A stretch of 64,000 bases of DNA from Gammaproteobacteria bacterium (GTDB lineage: Bacteria > Pseudomonadota > Gammaproteobacteria > Steroidobacterales > Rariloculaceae). A program made the translations under genes and the position numbers. Where the stretch lies: NCBI GenBank assembly GCA_029243585.1, contig JAQWRR010000041.1, forward strand, positions 3,477-67,476. Reading direction: 5' to 3'. A model generated the notes under the pieces. The model ran no database searches and was not told the DNA's origin. It worked only from the letters and a program-made list of their open reading frames with translations. Shown here piece after piece: positions 2,033 to 53,963 of this stretch (within the stretch, counting starts at the first letter, position 1; every line of letters begins with the position of its first letter).

Positions 2033-3267
2033 ATAAAAAGCCACAGCGCCTGGTAGTTGTTGTTGGCGGTGGTCCTGTGGGTTTATCTGTGGCCGCGTTA
2101 CTAAGTTCACACTCTAAATTAGAAAAATTTGATGTACATCTATTAGATTCAGGGTCTACACCAACCTGGTTTCGGGATAGCGTTGATTTGCGCGTATACG
2201 CACTTTCCCGTGTCTCACAGAATATTCTTAACAACCTGGGCGTATGGGAATCTATAGAAACCTGCCGCTCGTCTCCCTATGAGAGGATGCATGTATGGCA
2301 GGGAAAACATGACGCTCGCTTAGGTTCGGTAACATTCGATAGCGCGGAAGTGGGAGAGCCTAACTTAGGACATATTGTTGAAGATAGTTTGCTACGAGCT
2401 GAGTTAGTAAAGAATCTAGAACGCGCTGGCGTAAAAATTACATTTGGTGCCGAATTAAGCGAAATAGATGTACGAGAGAGAGAGGCTTATGTAACTCTTG
2501 CAACAGGCGAAAAGCTTTCGGCTGCTATTTTAATTGCAGCTGATGGTAGCTCTTCGACTGTTCGTGATTTACTTGAGATGCCTATAACAAAGGTCTCATA
2601 TCAGCAACAAGCTATCGTCACACATATAGAGACAGAAAAACCTCATGCGAAGACTGCCTGGCAGAGATTTCTTCCAGATGGTCCTCTAGCATTTTTGCCA
2701 CTAGCGGATGGGCGTAGTTCTGTGGTTTGGTCTGCTAAGTCTAATCATGCTAGGACCCTTTGCGAGCTTGGGGATTCTGAATTTAGGGCTAAACTTCAGA
2801 GAGCTAGTGGTAATGTATTAGGGAAGATATTGTCGCTTACTAAGCGTGCCAATTTTCCGCTTCAGGCATCTCATGCTCATCAATACTGCAGTGATCGAGT
2901 TGTGCTTGTTGGTGATGCTGCTCACACAATACACCCACTGGCAGGACAGGGCATGAACCTTGGCCTTATGGATGCTGCTGTAGTTGCTGACGTGCTTTTG
3001 GGGGCATTACATAAGGGAGAAGATCCTGGTGATTTGCGTGTGTTACGTCGTTATGAACGCCAGAGGAAGGGAGACAACTTAAAAATGCTTCTTGCTCTTG
3101 ATGTGCTGCATAGACTTTTCGGTGTTTCTGGGAATCTCATGCCACCAATTCGTTCAATCGGACTTAGTGCTTTTGATGCCATGCCCTTTGTGAAGTCTAT
3201 GATAATGCATAGGGCACTTGGTTATAGAAATCAACTCCCAGGAGCAGCAATAAATCCGATAGTTTGA
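2029..3267 (+). CDS. ubiI: FAD-dependent ubiquinone-biosynthesis hydroxylase (UbiI/VisC type)
   Basis: [15 protein letters not shown] motif and [21 protein letters not shown]. It is a paralogue of the upstream gene and sits in the position of visC/ubiI in the pepP-ubiH-visC string. TTG start overlaps the ubiH stop. Confidence 0.7.
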
Positions 3268-3323
3268 GCGGTTTTAATTTTCAGTTCTGTATAAAGCTGA
3301 AAAGCATCAAAGGAGTATGCCTA

Positions 3324-3718
3324 ATGAGTGAGGTACCTAACGATTTTAAGTACACAAAAGATCATGAGTGGGTTTCTGAACAGGATGATGGAACTTTGAT
3401 TGTTGGTATTACAGATTATGCACAGGCCTCCTTAGGAAATTTAGTGTTCGTAGAGTTGCCAGAAATAGACGATATGGTAGTAATGGGTGATGAATGCGCA
3501 GTTGTAGAATCTGTTAAAGCTGCATCCGATGTGTATTGTCCTTTAAGCGGAACAATCACTAAAAAAATGAAGCGCTCATAGATACACCTGAACTTGTAAA
3601 TTCTGATCCATATGGAGAAGGTTGGTTGTTCTGTTTAAGGACAGATCACCCTGCAGAATTTGAAGAGTTACTCAATAATAAGGGCTATACAGCACTACTT
3701 GCTGAGATAGATGATTGA
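3324..3718 (+). pseudogene. gcvH: Glycine-cleavage H protein (lipoyl carrier) with its frame broken by a 1-nt deficit in an A7 run
   Basis: AGGAG RBS at 3311-3315 and ATG at 3324. The sequence [17 protein letters not shown]...[21 protein letters not shown] stops at 3579-3581. The next frame continues [50 protein letters not shown] to the stop at 3716-3718. The span is 395 nt, one base short of in-frame. Confidence 0.8.
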
Positions 3719-36948: not shown

Positions 36949-37704
36949 CTACCGCTCCGGTTTCATCTCCGGTAGCTCGGACAGCATAAGTTCTTGGCAA
37001 ATAAATTCCGCTAGTTCAAAGTCTCTAGATTTGAAAGTGATGCTGGAGTTCCAGGGTGTTTTGTAGGCAATTGGGTCATCTATGGTAATTTTGTTCTCTA
37101 GTGTTTGTTCATCAATACGTCTAATCTTCTCAATAAGACGTAATTCATCGCTATGAGGCCAGCCGAGACGATCAAGCCAGCGTTGCTGTTGTTCAGATTC
37201 CCAGCCAATAAAATAGCGTGTTTCAATGACTAAACTATCTCCTTCGTAGTGACCTATGGAATACCCATTCCATGTGTGTAACGGAATCTCGGGGAATTCT
37301 CGCCCATCTGTGTAGATGACTCGCCAAAAGTTATCCGTTTCGAACAGCATTACAACCCTATCTGGGAGTTGAATAATTTCAAAGGGCCGTGGTCGAAAGT
37401 AAGCATGGGGCATTCCCATTGGGAGGCATAGTAATTCTGCTGCATTAGATTCTGTAGCGGATGCGGGATTGGCCCCATGAATTGGCTTTGCTAAAGCAAA
37501 CCGTTCCTGCCCCCACTGTGTAAGCGGGGGTTCTTCATTTACAAGAGCTGGTGAAGCAAGTGTTGGGTATCTTGGTCCGCCGCGCCCGCCCCATAAACTT
37601 TGCCAGACTCCAGAAAGTTCTGGTGTTTGTCCAAATACGGTTGTTATAGCGCTAAGCCCAACTAATAGAAGAATGGTTTTTGCTGTTATTCGGTAGCCGC
37701 TCAT
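36949..37704 (-). CDS. Exported ~250-aa partner protein, copy L1 (uncharacterised family)
   Basis: Signal peptide present. It shares long identical runs with L2 (RPRPFEIIQLP, PLHTWNGYSIGHYE, QQRWLDRLG, RDFELAEF.CQELMLSELPEM). The core DGR.FPE...G.SIG.YEGD.LVIET is shared with L3 and the fusion. Confidence 0.7.
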   Translation of the reverse strand: MSGYRITAKTILLLVGLSAITTVFGQTPELSGVWQSLWGGRGGPRYPTLASPALVNEEPPLTQWGQERFALAKPIHGANPASATESNAAELLCLPMGMPHAYFRPRPFEIIQLPDRVVMLFETDNFWRVIYTDGREFPEIPLHTWNGYSIGHYEGDSLVIETRYFIGWESEQQQRWLDRLGWPHSDELRLIEKIRRIDEQTLENKITIDDPIAYKTPWNSSITFKSRDFELAEFICQELMLSELPEMKPER

Positions 37705-37714
37705 GGTGTAGACC

Positions 37715-38116
37715 TCAGGGATCGTTTCTTACATTGATATGAGTACCGTCCATAAGTTCTACAGCCTCAGTCCACATTGAGAGAACATTTGGGCGTCTGT
37801 CAGGGTTACCAATGATTGTTACCTGATCTCCTGGTTTGAATGTATCTTTGTTCCAGCTAAAAAACCTATAAAGATCTTGAACACTTTGAAACTCTCCTGA
37901 CCAGCTTTCAATTTCTCCCACTTCATTGACCACATCCAGAAAGATTCCAACATGAGGATTTATAAACTGCCATTTAGAGACAGTGCCAGTCACTGAGATT
38001 GACTTGGTTCGATCATAGGCAGAGTTAGCATGATGCGCTTGTGCTTCCATGACTGAACTGAAGAAAAATAAAATAGCAGACGAAACCAAAATAATATTAA
38101 TTTTTGTTCGTACCAT
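37715..38116 (-). CDS. Small exported His-His protein, copy S1 (DUF6152-like from memory)
   Basis: The signal peptide ends in EAQA, then HHANSAYD...GTVSKWQFINPH...W..E...FKPGD. The ATG at 38116 is preferred; the ORF extends to 38146. Confidence 0.7.
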   Translation of the reverse strand: MVRTKINIILVSSAILFFFSSVMEAQAHHANSAYDRTKSISVTGTVSKWQFINPHVGIFLDVVNEVGEIESWSGEFQSVQDLYRFFSWNKDTFKPGDQVTIIGNPDRRPNVLSMWTEAVELMDGTHINVRNDP

Positions 38117-38146
38117 GGTTAGATTATCCTTTAAAGAGCCTAACAA

Positions 38147-38866
38147 TCACTCAGGCCTCATTTCTGGTAATTCAGATAACATCAGTTCCTGACATACAAA
38201 CTCTGCAAGTTCAAAATCTCTTTTTCTAAAGTTTAATGTACCGGTCAGTACATTTTCGTATGCGATAGGGTCATGGATAGACACTTCATTTACTATCGAT
38301 TCAGCATCGACACGCCGAATTCGTTCGATAATTCTTACTTGGTCACTAAATGGGTGACCAAGGCGATCAAGCCATCGCTGTTGATTCTCTGATTCCCAGC
38401 CCAGTATATTCCTAGTCTCGATAACTAGCGTGTCTTCTTCGTAGTGCCCTATGGAGTATCCATTCCAAGTGTGTAGAGGTACTTCTGGGAAATCCCGACC
38501 ATCCATATATACAATTCTCCAGAAATTATTAATTTCAAAAAGCATTACAACTCGGTTTGGGAGCTGAATAATCTCAAAAGGTCTAGGACGGTAGTAGGTT
38601 CCCGGAAACCCCATCGGCAGGCACTGCATTTCGGCGGCATTGGATTGAGTGGCTGATGCAGTTCTGGGACCATGAAGCGGTTTAGCCAGGTCAAAGCGTT
38701 CTTGTGCCCATGAAGTCATTGGAGGATCAGGAACGAGTGAGGAGGCCCCTGGAAAATTCCTTTGCCAGACACCAGAAAAGTCAGGAACAGATTGCGCTTT
38801 AGTCACAATGGCCATCAGGTAGATCAGGGACCAGATAAAAAATTTTGTTAAAGTATTTAAAAGCAT
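38147..38866 (-). CDS. Exported ~250-aa partner protein, copy L2
   Basis: The ATG at 38866 gives a signal peptide (MLLNTLTKFFIWSLIYLMAIVTKAQS) and a 4-nt gap after the S2 stop. It is highly similar to L1. Confidence 0.7.
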   Translation of the reverse strand: MLLNTLTKFFIWSLIYLMAIVTKAQSVPDFSGVWQRNFPGASSLVPDPPMTSWAQERFDLAKPLHGPRTASATQSNAAEMQCLPMGFPGTYYRPRPFEIIQLPNRVVMLFEINNFWRIVYMDGRDFPEVPLHTWNGYSIGHYEEDTLVIETRNILGWESENQQRWLDRLGHPFSDQVRIIERIRRVDAESIVNEVSIHDPIAYENVLTGTLNFRKRDFELAEFVCQELMLSELPEMRPE

Positions 38867-38870
38867 AGGT

Positions 38871-39260
38871 TTAGTCTGGAGCGCTCCGCACATCCACTTC
38901 TGACCCATCAGCAAAGATCACTATTCGGGTGCTAATAGTTGGACCGCCGGTTCTGGCAGGATGGCCAATAAGAGTAATTGAATCACCTGGTTTAAATGTG
39001 TCCTTGTTAAATTTGAAGTGTCGATAAAGGTCAAGTGTTCCTTGAAATTCTGCTGACCATTCTTGTTTCTCTCCATTTTCGCCCATTATGTCTAGCCATA
39101 GGCCTGCATGAGGGTTGATGAATTGCCATTTAGAGACAGTTCCAGAGATAGTAATGTCTGTTGATCTGTCATAAAGAGAGTTTGCATGATGCGCCTCAAT
39201 TGAGACGCCAGTTATAGCTGTAAGCAGACTTACGACTATAAAAACATTTCTTTTTTTCAC
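38871..39260 (-). CDS. Small exported His-His protein, copy S2
   Basis: The signal peptide ends in SIEA, then HHANSLYD...GTVSKWQFINPH...NKDTFKPGD. First gene of the minus-strand operon. Confidence 0.7.
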   Translation of the reverse strand: MKKRNVFIVVSLLTAITGVSIEAHHANSLYDRSTDITISGTVSKWQFINPHAGLWLDIMGENGEKQEWSAEFQGTLDLYRHFKFNKDTFKPGDSITLIGHPARTGGPTISTRIVIFADGSEVDVRSAPD

Positions 39261-43758: not shown

Positions 43759-44541
43759 ATGCCAAATTTTCTGGTTGCCGAAAATCAGGTTGAATATGAG
43801 CAGACAGGAGCAGGGCAGGATTTGATCTTGTTACCAACACTTCTGGCAGAGATGACGGTTTATGATGAGGTGATTGACTATTTAAGTAGGCAGTTTCGTG
43901 TTACTCGTATAAATTTCCCTGGTTTTGGTACATCACTCGGCCCAATTGGTCAAACAATAGAATCATATGCAGATCTAACTGCGGCAACAATGAAGGCTTT
44001 ATCGTTGCCGACTAATGCTCATTTGGTAGGCAATGGCTTTGGGGGCTTTGTTGCTAGCACTCTCGCGATTCGTCATGGGGCTAGCTTTAATAAATTAGTA
44101 TTGGTTGACACGGGTGCTGGTTTTCCTGAGCCAGCAAAAGAAGCGTTAAGAGTTTTAGCGAATAAGGCCATAAATGAAGGAATGAATTCGGTTCTGGATG
44201 CCGCTATTAAAAGAATGTTCCCTGAGGATTTTATTATCGAGAATCCATCTATTATGGAGCGACGACGACATTATCTTGCACAGGCCGATCCAAGTCTTTT
44301 TGCGAACGCTGCGCGTGCACTTACGTTTTTAGATAATAGACCAAGATTAAGTGAAATTAATAATCCCACATTAGTTGTTGTTGGCCTTGCTGATGCAACA
44401 ACACCACCTGCTCTTTCATATGAGCTTAAGACGGGAATTTCAGGTTCTATTCTCCAGGAACTGCCACAAATTGGGCATTGCCCGCAACTTCAAGATCCAA
44501 CAGCATTTTTGAATGCTGTGGTTCCTTTTTTAAATTCTTGA
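43759..44541 (+). CDS. Alpha/beta-hydrolase-fold protein (enol-lactonase-like) with Gly at the nucleophile position
   Basis: HLVGNGFGGFVAS occupies the place of the canonical G-x-S-x-G elbow. The Asp region VVVGLADATTPP and His region IGHCPQLQDP are retained. Confidence 0.7.
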   Translation: MPNFLVAENQVEYEQTGAGQDLILLPTLLAEMTVYDEVIDYLSRQFRVTRINFPGFGTSLGPIGQTIESYADLTAATMKALSLPTNAHLVGNGFGGFVASTLAIRHGASFNKLVLVDTGAGFPEPAKEALRVLANKAINEGMNSVLDAAIKRMFPEDFIIENPSIMERRRHYLAQADPSLFANAARALTFLDNRPRLSEINNPTLVVVGLADATTPPALSYELKTGISGSILQELPQIGHCPQLQDPTAFLNAVVPFLNS

Positions 44542-44611
44542 AGCTAAATTGAAGTTTGCTTATTAAAGCAACTGTATAATGATGTTCTAACTAAAGCGCA
44601 GGACTTTGCGA

Positions 44612-45235
44612 ATGAAATTATCCAATTTTTTTGCTGTATTGTTTTTTATGATAGGACTTGGAGTGTCAATCCAGCCGTTGCAGGCTCAACCAAATCTAGA
44701 TGATATGTTTCTTGATGAAGACTCTGATTCTTTCGACCCAGGTTTGCCTATAGGCTCTGACTTTCCGTCTATACGAGCAATATATAGGGGCCAGGAGATT
44801 AATGATGTTCAATCATTTTATGAGGAAAGAGGGCTAGTTGTTTTTGCAATTCGTTCCGTTGATTGGTGACCCTTTTGTAGAGCGCAACTCGTGCAGTTGC
44901 AAAACTATGCAGAAGACTACGAAGAGGCTGGTATTGGTATGGTTGTCATAACTTATGATTCACCTGATCTCCAGGAAGAGTTTGTTAATGCAGGTAATTT
45001 AACTTATCAGTTTATTTCTGATATTGACGCTACGACTATGAATGCTTTAGGCATACTAAATGAACAATATTCACCAGGAGATCCTGCCTATGGAATTCCT
45101 CATCCTGGAGTTTTTGTTATTGACTTGAATAATGAAATAGTTGGTAAGATATTTATTGAAAGTTTCAGAGAACGCGTGGATGGCGAAGGTACTTTGAATT
45201 ATGCATTAGAGATGCTAGAGACAGAAAGCGAATAA
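44612..45235 (+). CDS. Exported peroxiredoxin-like/redoxin protein with an in-frame TGA at the first redox Cys position (candidate selenoprotein, U-P-F-C)
   Basis: The two track ORFs (44606-44869 and 44891-45235) share one frame and are separated only by TGA 44867-44869. The read-through sequence is RGLVVFAIRSVDW-U-PFCRAQLVQLQNYAEDYEEAGIGMVVITYD...IPHPGVFVID, a canonical AhpC/TSA-redoxin layout. Signal peptide present. Confidence 0.6.
44884..44900 (+). promoter_or_regulatory. Hairpin downstream of the in-frame TGA (candidate bacterial SECIS apical stem-loop)
   Basis: GCAACT-CGTGC-AGTTGC has a 6-bp perfect stem and a 5-nt loop containing G/U. The loop lies 21-25 nt after the TGA. Confidence 0.4.
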
Positions 45236-45298: not shown

Positions 45299-45375
45299 GG
45301 TGATGTAGCTCAGCCGGTTAGAGCGGCGGATTCATAACCCGCAGGTCGGTAGTTCAAGTCTACCCATCACCACCA
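45299..45375 (+). tRNA. tRNA with a CAU anticodon (elongator Met, or Ile2 if lysidine-modified), CCA encoded
   Basis: Manual cloverleaf: acceptor GGTGATG/CATCACC, D arm GCTC-AGCCGGTTA-GAGC, anticodon arm GCGGA-TTCATAA-CCCGC (A31-C39 mismatch), T arm GGTAG-TTCAAGT-CTACC, discriminator A and CCA. The G1-C72 pair argues against an initiator. Confidence 0.9.
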
Positions 45376-45390
45376 TCTTTATCTTTCGCA

Positions 45391-45422
45391 GATCGACAGT
45401 TTAAGTCTACTCATCACTACGA
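45391..45422 (+). repeat. Degenerate direct copy of the tRNA 3' half (possible att-site remnant)
   Basis: GATCGACAGTTTAAGTCTACTCATCACTACGA versus the tRNA 3' end GGTCGGTAGTTCAAGTCTACCCATCACCACCA (45344-45375). By manual alignment 25 of 32 positions are identical. It starts 15 nt after the tRNA. Confidence 0.55.
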
Positions 45423-45527
45423 TTTGTAAGTAAAGCTAGTAAGTTATTTTTCTAGTTATATCTTATGGAGATTGTAATTATTGTTCGCTAATGGATAAAC
45501 TGAAGAGGCTATTAAAGGAGAAAACAG

Positions 45528-45890
45528 ATGAGGATTATTTCAATACTCTTAGCATTACTGTTGTCTAGTCCTTCAGCGTTTGCAGAGACTTGGATTTGTT
45601 CTTGGTCAGATGATGACGAAACTTTTAATGATACATACGTAAGAACTGTTAATGGTTTTAATGAATCAAGGGATGGAGATGCTTTGGACTTTACTTGGGA
45701 GGTTGTTCATGAAGATGAAAGTGTATTGGTTCTTCACTCCACAATTACAGGAAATTCTATTGGATCATATTTTTATACATCTATAACTCAGATCGAAAAG
45801 CATGGTGAGAATCGTTTCGTTCAAAGTATTATCAGCCCCATGAATTCGGGTCAAATAATAACCGAAGGTGAATGTATAGTTGTTCAATAA
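45528..45890 (+). CDS. Small exported hypothetical protein
   Basis: Signal peptide ending in SAFA, GGAG RBS, 120 aa, no recognisable motif. Confidence 0.4.
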   Translation: MRIISILLALLLSSPSAFAETWICSWSDDDETFNDTYVRTVNGFNESRDGDALDFTWEVVHEDESVLVLHSTITGNSIGSYFYTSITQIEKHGENRFVQSIISPMNSGQIITEGECIVVQ

Positions 45891-45896
45891 GCAGGA

Positions 45897-46937
45897 ATGA
45901 TAGCAATGAGAATCATTACAATGCTTCTCTTCAGCCTTGGCTTGATTGGGCAGGCCTATGCTCATCATGGTTCTGCCCCACATTTTGATTCCAACGATAT
46001 AGTTAGCTTTGAGGGTGTTGTGACCCAAGTATATTTTGTGAATCCCCACGCGATTGTACATTTCGAGGTTAGTGATTCTAATGGGTCAATAGCCGAATGG
46101 CGTTGTGAGTTATCAGGGGCTTCGCAACTCCAGAGGTTTGGTTGGTCACAGGAAACACTTAGTGTTGGAGATGAAATTCGAATTGTAGGTTCGAGAGCAC
46201 GGCGTGAAGCTAATCATTGCGATACCCGATCAATACATCTTGCCGATGGCACTAATCTTAGTCGTGATATTTATATTCAAGGAAATATCAGGCAGTCGCG
46301 TATTGCAAAGGCAGCTGACGTCGCATCTAGGCCGCAATATCTTGAAAATAGCCAGCCAAACATTAGCGGTAGATGGATTGTTCGTGAAGGTGGCGAGCAT
46401 ACTTTGCCCATACCGACAGATGCGGGGCGGCTAGCCTCAGAACGTTATGATGTTCGTTTTGATAATCCCTCTATTCGCTGTGAAAGCGGTAACATTGTTT
46501 GGGACTGGGCACGCCAAGCCCATATTAACGATATACATCAGGAGGAAGGTCAGATTCTGATTCGATACGGCTATCTTGATCTTATTCGAACAGTTCATCT
46601 GGATACTACAAAGCATCCAGAAAATATCGTTCCAAGTCTTGAGGGACATTCAATCGGTCTTTGGGATGGAGATACGCTGGTCATCGATACAATCGGTTTT
46701 TTGCCACGAGCTTTTATTCCCCGGGAATCAGTCATGACCAGTGAAGAGATGCATGTTGTTGAACGGATTAGATTTGATAATGAGTTGAGTGTGCTTGTTC
46801 GCGACTATGTAGTTATTGATCCACTGTACTTAGCTGAGCCCTACCATGGCCAGGATATTTCAGACCTAGCGATGACAGCATATCAACCATACAACTGTGT
46901 GGATTTAAGTGGTGAGAATAACCGTAGGCCTGATTAA
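45897..46937 (+). CDS. Natural fusion of the small His-His domain (S5) with the ~250-aa partner domain (L4)
   Basis: The signal peptide ends in QAYA. The sequence HHGSAPHFD...GVVTQVYFVNPH...W..E...VGDEIRIVG is followed in the same ORF by ISGRW...VHLDTTKHPENIVPSLEGHSIGLWDGDTLVIDT...VVIDPLYLAEP. Confidence 0.7.
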   Translation: MIAMRIITMLLFSLGLIGQAYAHHGSAPHFDSNDIVSFEGVVTQVYFVNPHAIVHFEVSDSNGSIAEWRCELSGASQLQRFGWSQETLSVGDEIRIVGSRARREANHCDTRSIHLADGTNLSRDIYIQGNIRQSRIAKAADVASRPQYLENSQPNISGRWIVREGGEHTLPIPTDAGRLASERYDVRFDNPSIRCESGNIVWDWARQAHINDIHQEEGQILIRYGYLDLIRTVHLDTTKHPENIVPSLEGHSIGLWDGDTLVIDTIGFLPRAFIPRESVMTSEEMHVVERIRFDNELSVLVRDYVVIDPLYLAEPYHGQDISDLAMTAYQPYNCVDLSGENNRRPD

Positions 46938-46945
46938 ACCGAAAA

Positions 46946-46983
46946 GGTTGTTTTTGAGTATTATAGAACAACCGTGCTTTTTT
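46946..46983 (+). terminator. Candidate rho-independent terminator after the fusion gene
   Basis: The stem GGTTGTT/AACAACC (7 bp) has a 14-nt loop, followed by GTGC and then TTTTTT. Confidence 0.4.
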
Positions 46984-47130
46984 ATCTTATAGAGAAAATA
47001 ACGTATAAAGTTATGACTTATATAGCTTTTAAGTTTTAATTATTAATTTTTATAGGCTATATAAGAACGTTCATTCTTTTTAATGAGTATTGCAAAAAGT
47101 GGTGTTAGCTATACTGAAATTTGCCAAAGA

Positions 47131-48060: not shown

Positions 48061-48675
48061 CTAAGATTTTTTAGCTACTAATTGTGCAAGTGCTGCAGTA
48101 CGACCATCAGGATCTTTAACAAGGCCTTCATTATAAGAGAGAACTTTTAGTTCTTTAGCTGCATCATAAAGTGATTTGGGTGGAACGCGAAATTTAGGAT
48201 TTTTTGGGCCAATAACTTCTTTATTTGTAACTAGGTGTTCTTCTACGATCAGGTGCCCGCCTACTTTAAGAGCTCTATAAAGGTTTCTGATTAAAGATAA
48301 GTTGGTATATCGAATCATAATCGCAAGGTTGTATTCATTATCTATAAGATAATCACCTTGATTCTGAGTATCTCCACAATCTTGATGTAAACAGGTTATA
48401 GGCAATTTTTTCGAATTTGATTTTTTTTCTAAGAGTTCAAGAGCGACTTCTGAAATATCAAAAGCATCAACTTGCCAGCCATGTTGCGCTAGATAGATAG
48501 AGTTTCTACCAGTACCGCTTGCAATATCTACTGCTCGTAACTGGCGTGTATGGTTCTGTAATTTTGGTAACCATTCAGTTAATAGTGCACTGGGATGGGT
48601 GCGGGTTCCATATGCACCTTTCTTGTAACGCTCATTCCATTTTTTTTGACTGCTTGTATTCATAAATAAAGTCAC
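48061..48675 (-). CDS. Class I SAM-dependent methyltransferase (TehB-like)
   Basis: WNERY...SAM motif I AVDIASGTGRNSIYLAQHG, then VDAFDIS. 204 aa. Confidence 0.7.
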   Translation of the reverse strand: MTLFMNTSSQKKWNERYKKGAYGTRTHPSALLTEWLPKLQNHTRQLRAVDIASGTGRNSIYLAQHGWQVDAFDISEVALELLEKKSNSKKLPITCLHQDCGDTQNQGDYLIDNEYNLAIMIRYTNLSLIRNLYRALKVGGHLIVEEHLVTNKEVIGPKNPKFRVPPKSLYDAAKELKVLSYNEGLVKDPDGRTAALAQLVAKKS

Positions 48676-51407: not shown

Positions 51408-51848
51408 TTAATCTCGTTGTTGACGATATTCTTCAAGACGTGTTTGGACTATTCGCATTCGTTCTCCAAACTGACCATTTCCACCACCAACCTCTGTACC
51501 TGCAGCGTTTGTGATAAATGTCCACTCAATCAGGTTATCACCGAATCGTGAAGGCCGACCCAAGACTTGGACACGGTCCCCAGGCTTGAATTGATCATGA
51601 GTCCAACCTGCACGCCGAAGATTAATGATACTGTCGCCTTCAGCCATCCAAGATTCTGTTTCACCCTGTTCATTTGTCACATCTAAGTAAATGCGAGAAT
51701 GAGGGTTAACTGGTCGGAACTCAGTCACAGTACCTTCGATTTCTATACGTTCATCGACTATGTAGTGAGCAGCCGGATTGTGATGAGCCATGGAAGAAAT
51801 TGAAATTAATGCCATTCCACTAAAAATTACTAAGCTTTTACTAACCAT
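51408..51848 (-). CDS. Small exported His-His protein, copy S3
   Basis: The signal peptide ends in SSMA, then HHNPAAHY...GTVTEFRPVNPH...W.AEG...FKPGD. Confidence 0.65.
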   Translation of the reverse strand: MVSKSLVIFSGMALISISSMAHHNPAAHYIVDERIEIEGTVTEFRPVNPHSRIYLDVTNEQGETESWMAEGDSIINLRRAGWTHDQFKPGDRVQVLGRPSRFGDNLIEWTFITNAAGTEVGGGNGQFGERMRIVQTRLEEYRQQRD

Positions 51849-51863
51849 GTTTAATTCCTCTTT

Positions 51864-52691
51864 TTACATTTCACCAGAAATTGACTCACATGGAGCATCT
51901 ATCAGATTTACTTCAGGTGTGAAAATTCTAGTACGCTCTAAAACAAGTGGTTCTTGAAACATCACAGGGTCTATTAATGTGAATTGCCCATGTAGTCGCT
52001 TGCCATCCTCACTGAGTGTATAGCGTTCAATAGTACGTGCATTATCAGCATTATGAATATTCAACGCATCTTCAGCTATGCTCGCAGAGATATTTGCAGT
52101 ATCAATGACTAATGTTGAGCCCTCATACCAGCCAATTGAATGTCCTATTGCGGTGAGTGGCCCATTCTCTGGGTGACCACGGCCATCCATATAAACTACG
52201 CGATCAGCTGCTAAATCTTCTGGACGAATTATTATCTGATCCTGGTTTTGCTCGATAAGAATTGGGTCGTTATGGAGTATTGTTCTAAACACACCAAAGT
52301 ACTCACATTGGATCGAAGGGTCATCTGCATGATCATAAATAGCCAGGTAGTCTATTTGCTCTTGTGTATATAGGTTTCTAATAGCTAATCGATTGTAGTC
52401 TCTAACGGCTTCTTGAATCTCCAGAGCCGACATATGGTCATTTTCTGGCAGAAGGAGTTCACGAAGGTGATCATAGGTTTCCGATGTGCAGTTACAAGCA
52501 AATAAATCTTCAACCGTCCAGTCCGGATGTTCGATTGCCGTGACTGTTGTACTCCACATTCCACCAATAGCTGGTGGTGATTCTTGTGCCGTTAAGATTC
52601 GAGTGTCTAGCGAAAAGCCTAAAGCTATTAATGTAAGGCTGCTCAGCCGTAACAGATGATTCTGTATCCTAAGGGCATTTGTGTGTCTCAT
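51864..52691 (-). CDS. Exported partner protein, divergent copy L3
   Basis: The hydrophobic N-terminus is followed by IGGMW...VVYMDGRGHPENGPLTAIGHSIGWYEGSTLVIDT...LIDPVMFQEP and a C-terminal APCE. It lies 15 nt upstream of S3, so the gene order is reversed relative to S1/L1. Confidence 0.6.
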   Translation of the reverse strand: MRHTNALRIQNHLLRLSSLTLIALGFSLDTRILTAQESPPAIGGMWSTTVTAIEHPDWTVEDLFACNCTSETYDHLRELLLPENDHMSALEIQEAVRDYNRLAIRNLYTQEQIDYLAIYDHADDPSIQCEYFGVFRTILHNDPILIEQNQDQIIIRPEDLAADRVVYMDGRGHPENGPLTAIGHSIGWYEGSTLVIDTANISASIAEDALNIHNADNARTIERYTLSEDGKRLHGQFTLIDPVMFQEPLVLERTRIFTPEVNLIDAPCESISGEM

Positions 52692-53588: not shown

Positions 53589-53963
53589 TTAGTCGAATTC
53601 TTTCTCTGTACCATCGTCCAGAGTTATGTAACCGAGTAAGCAACCTCTAGAGCCGTCTCTTAGTGGATGACATCTCATCTTCAGGTCGTCTCCCACCTGT
53701 ATGCTTTCTTGAGTCCAGCCATCTCGTCGAAGTTGCGTAATACTGGCACCCTCAATGGCCCAGGGTCTTGGCTGACCATCCGCATCTGCTACCTCAAGGT
53801 AGATCCAACTATGGGGGTTTAACCAATGAATCTCACTAACGGTACCCTCCAGAAACATCCATTCTGTCTCTACATAGTTGGCATGGGAGTGATGCCCCGA
53901 TGCAACTGGATTAATAGCTATGAGCATGAATATTGTTAAGACACTCGTTATTCTTAATCTCAT
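53589..53963 (-). CDS. Small exported His-His protein, copy S4 (no adjacent L partner)
   Basis: The signal peptide ends in VASG, then HHSHANYV...GTVSEIHWLNPH...W.IEG...VGDD. Confidence 0.65.
   Translation of the reverse strand: MRLRITSVLTIFMLIAINPVASGHHSHANYVETEWMFLEGTVSEIHWLNPHSWIYLEVADADGQPRPWAIEGASITQLRRDGWTQESIQVGDDLKMRCHPLRDGSRGCLLGYITLDDGTEKEFD

Follow-up and report, generated by a model that had tools for sequence, protein, structure and literature searches.

An in-frame TGA splits the annotation of a very probable Prx-like selenoprotein gene in a gammaproteobacterial contig

The region from 44612 to 45235 on the plus strand of the window (by which we mean the whole 64,000-nucleotide stretch of gammaproteobacterial DNA that was analyzed) is very probably a single selenoprotein gene that was mis-split by annotation, with a compact bacterial SECIS at 44884 to 44900 and a product of the known "Prx-like 1" redoxin family. 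The complete coding sequence proposed here, with a U86-P-F-C89 active site, would supersede both of the ORFs annotated at this position. What doubt is left about the selenoprotein reading comes from the Sec machinery, which was not seen across the 64 kb of the window and the flanking sequences that were covered.

Annotation divides the gene into a piece of 85 to 87 aa, corresponding to a TTG-initiated ORF at 44606 to 44869, and a piece of 114 aa, corresponding to a GTG-initiated ORF at 44891 to 45235. The first-pass annotation had proposed that these ORFs lie in one frame, are interrupted solely by the TGA at 44867 to 44869, and together encode a protein of 207 residues counted from the ATG at 44612; the sequence, its translation, and the ORF list all agree with this. 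The read-through product spans 207 codons plus a TAA at 45233 to 45235, and Cys-containing homologues of approximately 210 aa align with it from end to end. A putative Shine-Dalgarno-like AGGA is found at 44600 to 44603, 8 nt 5' of the ATG, and a hydrophobic segment covering residues 1 to 25 (44612 to 44686, plus strand; MKLSNFFAVLFFMIGLGVSIQPLQA, followed by QP) suggests a cleaved N-terminal signal peptide; with such an export signal, the protein is probably periplasmic, and the periplasm is probably where it acts. The peptide around the stop reads FAIRSVDW-[TGA]-PFCRAQLVQLQ, in which the UGA is codon 86, corresponds in the alignment to the leading Cys of the homologues' CxxC motif, and would be read as selenocysteine, while the TGT codon at 44876 to 44878 (plus strand) encodes Cys89, the predicted resolving partner in UxxC. 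The GTG at 44891 to 44893 on the same strand, from which the downstream ORF is annotated to start, falls inside the loop of the candidate SECIS and is best regarded as a gene-calling artefact; the codons that follow the TGA and precede this GTG encode PFCRAQL, a conserved peptide. The gene sits between an alpha/beta hydrolase gene and a tRNA-Met gene (45299 to 45375, predicted by ARAGORN). We also looked for further selenoprotein candidates in the window as pairs of same-frame ORFs separated by TGA, and none was convincing; the pair described here is the only one that resembles a single gene.

A search of a protein collection returned 381 relatives with 42 to 59% identity to the window protein, nearly all of them full length at approximately 210 aa, and those with names came from marine Gammaproteobacteria such as Halioglobus. 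The first-pass annotation had placed the TGA exactly at the catalytic first Cys of the family and had asked for an alignment of homologues to check this; in the resulting alignment of 22 sequences, Cys occupies the TGA column in all 21 homologues that cover it, within the motif DWCP[YF]C, and P87 and C89 do not vary across the protein alignments. One entry, P0004, is a fragment of 114 aa with 98% identity to the window protein and stands for a Tara cluster of 35 sequences; that the short call recurs in 35 Tara sequences indicates that gene callers routinely truncate this redoxin gene. The window's 114-aa ORF was likewise found on four independent ENA metagenome contigs, each of which carries the same split into 85 and 114 aa.

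To the Cys-containing relatives can be added a set of relatives that carry TGA, all of which are metagenomic sequences or metagenome-assembled genomes (MAGs). In a scan that took one genome per GTDB species, four MAGs had TGA at the identical codon and no second stop: UBA6522 (assembly DJLG01; 96% amino acid identity), a gammaproteobacterial MAG from the Fram Strait (FRAM MAG_33, assembly CAXYEE01; 91%), XB_MAG81 (JAZAGZ01; 65%), and UBA1148 (DBZY01; 64%). A Thiomicrospira homologue with 43% identity has Cys instead. A metagenome scan, for which the query was an alignment of the MAG orthologue proteins, returned 80 loci, and in 22 of them (45% to 90% identity, from JGI, TARA, and other metagenome contigs) TGA is present at codon 86 as the sole stop. 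Forms with TGT or TGC interleave with the TGA forms from approximately 50% identity downward, and in a rough neighbor-joining tree the TGA forms cluster together, adjoining a Cys clade. The same column is thus occupied by TGT or TGC in the Cys forms and by TGA in the Sec forms, which is the Cys/Sec codon interchange that had been anticipated. In every Sec form, P-[FY]-C follows immediately 3' of the TGA; since this motif sits between the two annotated ORFs and is nevertheless kept in all Sec forms, the ribosome must read through the UGA.

These comparisons bear directly on the two simplest ways of dismissing the interrupted frame. A sequencing or assembly error at 44867 to 44869 would be easier to entertain given that the window contains a probable homopolymer-length error elsewhere, in gcvH, but the difference here is a substitution and not a homopolymer indel, and the same TGA occurs in four ENA assemblies, in four MAGs from different studies, and in JGI, TARA, and other contigs, besides the Tara cluster whose 35 members share the 114-aa call; we consider the chance of such an error to be negligible. 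The second possibility is a pseudogene, in which a TGY-to-TGA nonsense mutation struck a Cys-type redoxin gene, leaving the two ORFs as decaying remnants. Only a single-base change is needed to turn TGT or TGC into TGA, and at least one other gene in the window appears to be disrupted (gcvH, by a frameshift in the A-run at 3561 to 3567). However, the same TGA is retained down to 45% identity without a second stop or frameshift, the TGA forms are not one recent clone, and the catalytic partners P-[FY]-C just 3' of the stop are invariant. The first-pass annotation had argued that a random nonsense mutation was an unlikely cause and had named scattered stops in relatives as the sign of a pseudogene; we looked for scattered stops and found none, each Sec-form homologue having one stop and always at this codon, while the recurrence of the TGA in many independent assemblies, as the only stop in each frame, bears out the argument. 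Judged from the sequences, this pattern of conservation is one that neither a pseudogene nor a sequencing error can produce.

Both halves of the gene are under purifying selection. Between the window and locus L006, the dN/dS ratio is 0.17 for the part 5' of the TGA and 0.11 for the part 3' of it; in deeper pairs, synonymous sites are saturated (pS of 0.74 to 1.0) and pN is 0.11 to 0.40 on both sides of the TGA. Values of dN/dS below 0.2 on both sides, together with saturated synonymous sites, are again contrary to what decaying remnants would show, as is the hairpin described below, which is co-selected with the TGA. A pseudogene is in our judgment extremely unlikely, and this explanation is effectively refuted.

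We next turn to the RNA downstream of the UGA. The candidate bacterial SECIS (44884 to 44900, plus strand) consists of GCAACU at 44884 to 44889, a loop of CGUGC at 44890 to 44894, and AGUUGC at 44895 to 44900, that is, a hairpin of 17 nt with a 6-bp stem and a 5-nt loop, located at +18 to +34 in a numbering that starts at the U of UGA. The UGA is separated from the hairpin by 14 nt and from its apical loop by 20 nt. A perfect stem with six of six Watson-Crick pairs is formed in all 19 distinct TGA forms and in none of the 70 distinct Cys forms, which have a mean of 3.5 pairs of 6, although some reach 5 of 6. G at loop position 2 follows the same division (19/19 TGA forms versus 14/70 Cys forms), and the loop consensus among the TGA forms is C/A-G-G/U-N-N. 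RNAalifold applied to the 19 TGA-form sequences predicted exactly the helix at 44884 to 44900 and nothing else. Pair counting gave 100% paired cells and compensatory changes in two of the pairs. One pair alternates between A-U and G-C (4 versus 15 sequences), and the other changes from C-G to U-A in one clade, with a Leu-to-Phe replacement on one arm and a synonymous CAG-to-CAA change on the other. The covariation score was reached by none of 500 shuffles and slid registers collapse, with the caveat that covariation between CAA/TTG and CAG/CTG could partly reflect genome GC content. Because the arms are composed of Gln-Leu codons, and CAGCTG is palindromic, we simulated synonymous recodings with the window's own codon usage; a perfect hairpin arose in only 0.9 to 2.7% of them, so codon choice does not account for the hairpin. 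Such a hairpin in 19/19 TGA forms and 0/70 Cys forms, combined with purifying selection on both sides of the stop, sustains the original proposal of a candidate selenoprotein.

Thermodynamic folding of the single sequence gave a less distinctive picture. By minimum free energy (MFE), the segments 44860 to 44930 and 44867 to 44910 were not more stable than shuffled sequences (z = -0.14 and -1.28, respectively), and the hairpin alone, in the AT-richer version found in the window, is weak (-5.1 kcal/mol); with the hairpin enforced, the folding energy of the 48-nt region is -9.5 kcal/mol. The structure favored in single-sequence MFE folding was a longer stem (UUUUGUAG/UUGCAAAA) in competition with the hairpin. 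We set this stem aside, since the PYCQKQL and PYCMAQF clades are unable to form it and RNAalifold did not include it. No Rfam family matched at this site under either gathering or E-value thresholds, and no curated bacterial SECIS model fits it. Published bSECIS criteria call for an upper stem of 4 to 16 bp, a loop of 3 to 9 nt with a G in its first two positions, a distance of 16 to 37 nt from UGA to loop, and an MFE of -7.5 kcal/mol or below (PMC13188914, Fig. 2), and the element at 44884 to 44900 agrees with the four constraints on stem, loop size, loop G, and spacing, and also with the energy limit when the hairpin is enforced. It resembles the E. coli fdhF/fdnG-type SECIS in being a hairpin inside the coding sequence just 3' of the UGA, and the bSECISearch consensus in this respect as well as in its stem, loop size, loop G followed by G/U, and spacing of 20 nt. 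Unlike the fdhF/fdnG-type elements, it is very short, lacks the conserved lower stem and the bulged U, and is built of palindromic Gln-Leu codons; it would be a putative SelB target.

As for the machinery that would act on this element, neither the 64 kb window nor the sequence flanking related loci contained selA, selB, selC (tRNA-Sec), or selD; in Gammaproteobacteria, selC may lie inside selB. ARAGORN run on the window and seven loci reported only tRNA-Met, and an NCBIfam search of 56 window ORFs gave no SelA, SelB, or SelD, with part of the NCBIfam ORF scans reporting only matches with an E value of 1e-40 or lower. Since the window covers no more than a few percent of a genome, the absence of Sec genes from it says little, and we infer that the source genome is capable of Sec decoding. 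The genes that NCBIfam did identify in the window are gammaproteobacterial housekeeping genes, among them pepP, ubiH/ubiF, gcvH, lgt, thyA, apaH, rsmA, pdxA, surA, lptD, and murU. Among the long open frames of the window (at least 200 codons, both strands), 18 of 48 are terminated by TGA, which indicates the standard genetic code; an alternative code in which TGA specifies Trp or Gly was ruled out on this ground.

Since the machinery was not observed in the window and flanks, one may ask whether the UGA is read through without Sec, either by a near-cognate Trp or Cys tRNA or by generic read-through that a short hairpin could stimulate, or whether the two ORFs yield separate polypeptides that reassemble, the second of which could in principle start at GTG 44891. 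A start at that GTG would leave the conserved P-F-C89 untranslated, and the active site would be lost if Trp were inserted at position 86. The codon concerned is precisely that of the redox-active Cys in a CxxC motif, the classic Sec/Cys interchange, in a window that uses the standard code, and the hairpin fits the rules for SelB-type SECIS elements, having a G within the first two positions of the loop and a distance of 20 nt from the UGA. In addition, selenoproteins of this family recur in Geobacter and other organisms whose Sec trait is proven. We therefore regard read-through without Sec, or a split gene, as very unlikely, and return to the reading of the region as a single selenoprotein gene in considering the protein itself.

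With Cys substituted at the stop, the product matched the Pfam families AhpC-TSA (PF00578; E = 2.6e-18, 66.6 bits against a cutoff of 26) and Redoxin (PF08534; E = 8e-15), as expected from the first-pass description of an AhpC/TSA-redoxin-like protein. NCBIfam returned sub-threshold matches only, to "SelL-related redox protein" and BCP, and sequence matches in the PDB were confined to the extracytoplasmic thiol-disulfide oxidoreductases StoA and ResA (E = 0.001 to 0.004). A structure was modeled for P0003, a Cys homologue that is 52% identical to the window protein. The AlphaFold2 model of P0003 (pLDDT of 89.9, pTM of 0.82) has a peroxiredoxin/thioredoxin fold with the first Cys at a helix N terminus, and begins with an N-terminal helix at residues 6 to 25 followed by a low-confidence linker. 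A Foldseek search of the PDB with this model placed BCP/PrxQ, AhpC, AhpE, and Prx6 on top (E values of about 1e-10; TM scores of up to 0.86 normalized to the target), with ResA variants also present. The active-site context R-S-x-D-W-C/U-P-[FY]-C is conserved, and a [PA]L[LQ]AQ motif (LLAQ or LQAQ) recurs near the N terminus of the orthologues.

The window protein shares with BCP/PrxQ, AhpC, AhpE, and Prx6 the overall fold, the AhpC-TSA domain, and the structural position of the reactive residue. It differs from these peroxiredoxins in lacking the P-x-x-x-T-x-x-C signature, having A79 at position -7 and V83 at position -3, and in placing its second Cys at +3, as thioredoxins do; Sec-containing true peroxiredoxins carry TxxU and not UxxC (PMC1088965). 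With ResA, StoA, and TlpA (PDB 3erw, 4nmu, and 3c71), it has in common a thioredoxin-like fold and the W-C-x-x-C position at a helix N terminus, and its hydrophobic N-terminal segment may correspond to their export or anchor segment, but sequence similarity to them is marginal, at the E values given above, and the fold search ranks true peroxiredoxins higher; furthermore, ResA and StoA use Cys, whereas the window protein is predicted to use Sec. The absence of PxxxTxxC and the presence of a thioredoxin-type UxxC make a thiol:disulfide oxidoreductase role, like that of ResA or TlpA, somewhat likelier than that of a classical peroxidase. We infer that the protein is best read as an exported Prx-fold thiol:disulfide oxidoreductase with Sec86 as the nucleophile and Cys89 as the resolving residue.

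A family that fits this description has been described previously. In the Sargasso Sea selenoproteome, Zhang, Fomenko, and Gladyshev reported a "Prx-like protein" family in which a thioredoxin-like UXXC replaces the TXXU of Sec-peroxiredoxins (2005; PMC1088965), and the later Global Ocean Sampling (GOS) study listed "Prx-like 1" (pfam00578, UxxC) with 225 selenoprotein sequences and 2,740 Cys homologues (Zhang and Gladyshev 2008; PMC2398784), placing it among the most abundant marine selenoprotein families (PMC2398784). It corresponds to the "Prx-like thiol:disulfide oxidoreductase" of later reviews (PMC13188914); a 2026 review lists that family (PF00578; UxxC or UxxU) as "predicted with high confidence" and not verified experimentally (PMC13188914). 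Reads with RSVDWUPFCRAQL, RSVDWUPYCQKQLVQLQ, and RSVDWUPFCMRQF are found under "Prx-like 1" in GOS Dataset S1. Of these, JCVI_READ_1095469454775 (with RSVDWUPFCRAQL) is about 65% identical to the window protein over 48 aa, as counted by hand, and the read with GERGLVFIANRSVDWUPFCRAQL falls in the same clade as the window protein, so that the resemblance first noted to the U-x-x-C arrangement of marine Prx-like selenoproteins extends to reads of the same clade. The read with MIFIAVRSVDWUPYCQKQLVQLQRMRTDFERAGF, also of this clade, corresponds to metagenome loci L044 to L049, and JCVI_READ_1095907043969 matches L045-type sequences.

"Prx-like 1" and the window protein have in common the PF00578 domain, UxxC in place of TxxU or TxxC, numerous Cys homologues, and a marine origin, and nothing essential differs between the window protein and the "Prx-like 1" reads, except that here a full-length copy is seen in its genomic context and not as a read fragment. 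"Prx-like 1" is a broad set of subfamilies, of which the window clade is the RS[VA]DWUP[FY]C one, predicted to be exported. On the strength of PF00578, UxxC, and homology to catalogued members, the predicted protein is a member of the "Prx-like 1"/"Prx-like thiol:disulfide oxidoreductase" family. The SelL-related redox proteins (NF040769), which gave the best NCBIfam match, are also Prx-like redoxins linked to Sec usage, but the window protein scores 34 bits against a cutoff of 120 and is not one of them. This selenoprotein family, and even the clade of the window protein, is already catalogued in ocean metagenomes from 2005 to 2008.

Following established bacterial Sec insertion, SelB carrying Sec-tRNA(Sec) would bind the mRNA hairpin at 44884 to 44900, acting as a minimal bacterial SECIS, and would bring Sec to the ribosome against competition from release factor 2, such that the UGA at 44867 to 44869 would be decoded as selenocysteine. 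The predicted product is a 207-aa redoxin of the thioredoxin/peroxiredoxin fold with W-U86-P-F-C89 at the N terminus of the first helix of the fold. The U86 selenolate could then attack an oxidized substrate, which may be a disulfide or sulfenate of a partner protein or else a peroxide, and the resulting Se-S or Se-OH intermediate would be resolved by C89 to give an intramolecular selenenylsulfide, from which a reductant would recycle the enzyme.

A more ambitious reading joins two further proposals, namely, that a latent SECIS was present before the TGY-to-TGA change and that the protein works with DUF6152 proteins in a periplasmic redox system, so far undescribed, in aerobic marine Gammaproteobacteria; taken jointly, we consider these improbable. 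The SECIS-forming Q-L-x-Q-L segment (CAGCTG) is already present in Cys-type relatives with 4 to 5 of the 6 pairs, and, if the joint reading were true, the clade would be a clean natural model for the conversion of a Cys codon to a Sec codon. DUF6152 paralogues are the only recurring gene neighbors of the redoxin gene, and this association is weak because the paralogues are expanded throughout the genome of the lineage. The DUF6152 proteins, which are periplasmic and flank the selenoprotein gene in several genomes, have a mature N terminus that starts with His-His-Gly and that may be a metal site.

In practical terms, what is gained is a corrected annotation of 44612 to 45235; the type of system is not new. 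The family is as yet only a predicted one, and for it the locus supplies a full-length gene in context along with a compact SECIS, which makes the locus a convenient candidate for the family's first bench test, whether of selenium incorporation, SelB binding, or Sec-versus-Cys activity. Split calls such as those in the ENA gene calls and in the Tara cluster of 35 hide an abundant marine selenoprotein and undercount the use of selenium by aerobic marine Gammaproteobacteria.

Transcription of the selenoprotein gene (44612-45235, +) may be separate from that of the alpha/beta-hydrolase gene upstream of it (43759-44541). A terminator-like hairpin followed by a T-run lies at 44500-44529 (+), within the final codons of the hydrolase gene; this suggests that the selenoprotein gene has its own putative promoter in the 70-nt gap that follows. 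Candidate elements in this gap are TTGAAG at 44549 and TATAAT at 44575, with a 20-nt spacer, and a consensus promoter scan did not flag this pair.

About 0.7 kb downstream, with a tRNA-Met gene and a 120-aa ORF in between, we find a fused, 346-aa copy of a DUF6152 (PF19649) protein (45897-46937, +). Further copies are encoded on the minus strand at 37715-38146, 38871-39260, 51408-51848, and 53589-53963, and several of these, all small, have a partner of 250 to 310 aa directly after them (partner ORFs at 36949-37704, 38147-38914, and 51864-52691, all on the minus strand). The DUF6152 proteins, present in multiple copies in the window, are a lineage-specific expansion, and homologues also flank the Sec-redoxin gene at four related loci (L008, L029, L032, and L037). 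The N terminus is an apparent signal peptide, after which His-His-Gly forms the predicted mature start (AYA|HHGSAPHFD); this start suggests a putative N-terminal metal site in the mature protein.

The fused copy lies within a 1.6-kb insertion/deletion adjoining the tRNA-Met gene. Between this gene and a glyoxalase gene, the window carries the 120-aa ORF, predicted to be secreted (45528-45890), and the fused DUF6152 gene, whereas in UBA6522, the MAG with 96% identity, just 184 bp (2370-2553 of its locus, L005) stand in place of window positions 45376-47130. A gene for a TehB-like SAM-dependent methyltransferase (48061-48675, -) follows approximately 3 kb beyond the selenoprotein gene. Its matches to TehB, the methyltransferase of tellurite resistance, are sub-threshold, and the gene is kept in L005 and in another related locus, L006.

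Elsewhere in the window, gcvH (3264-3700) is frameshifted: frame 0 matches positions 1-80 of the 129 in the GcvH profile and then reaches a stop, and the rest of the protein is encoded in another frame, past an A-run at 3561-3567. This run has 7 A, and 8 A would restore the frame. The frameshift is probably an assembly error in the length of the homopolymer, the alternative being that it is real.

The Q-L-V-Q-L-Q peptide also occurs in certain homologues of the Cys type, including the L054 form (KRQLVQLQ) and likewise other Cys-form loci, and these already form five of the six pairs of the candidate SECIS hairpin, together with a G early in the loop. Judging from these sequences, the five-pair structure of the Cys forms may represent a SECIS-like hairpin that is either latent or a relic.
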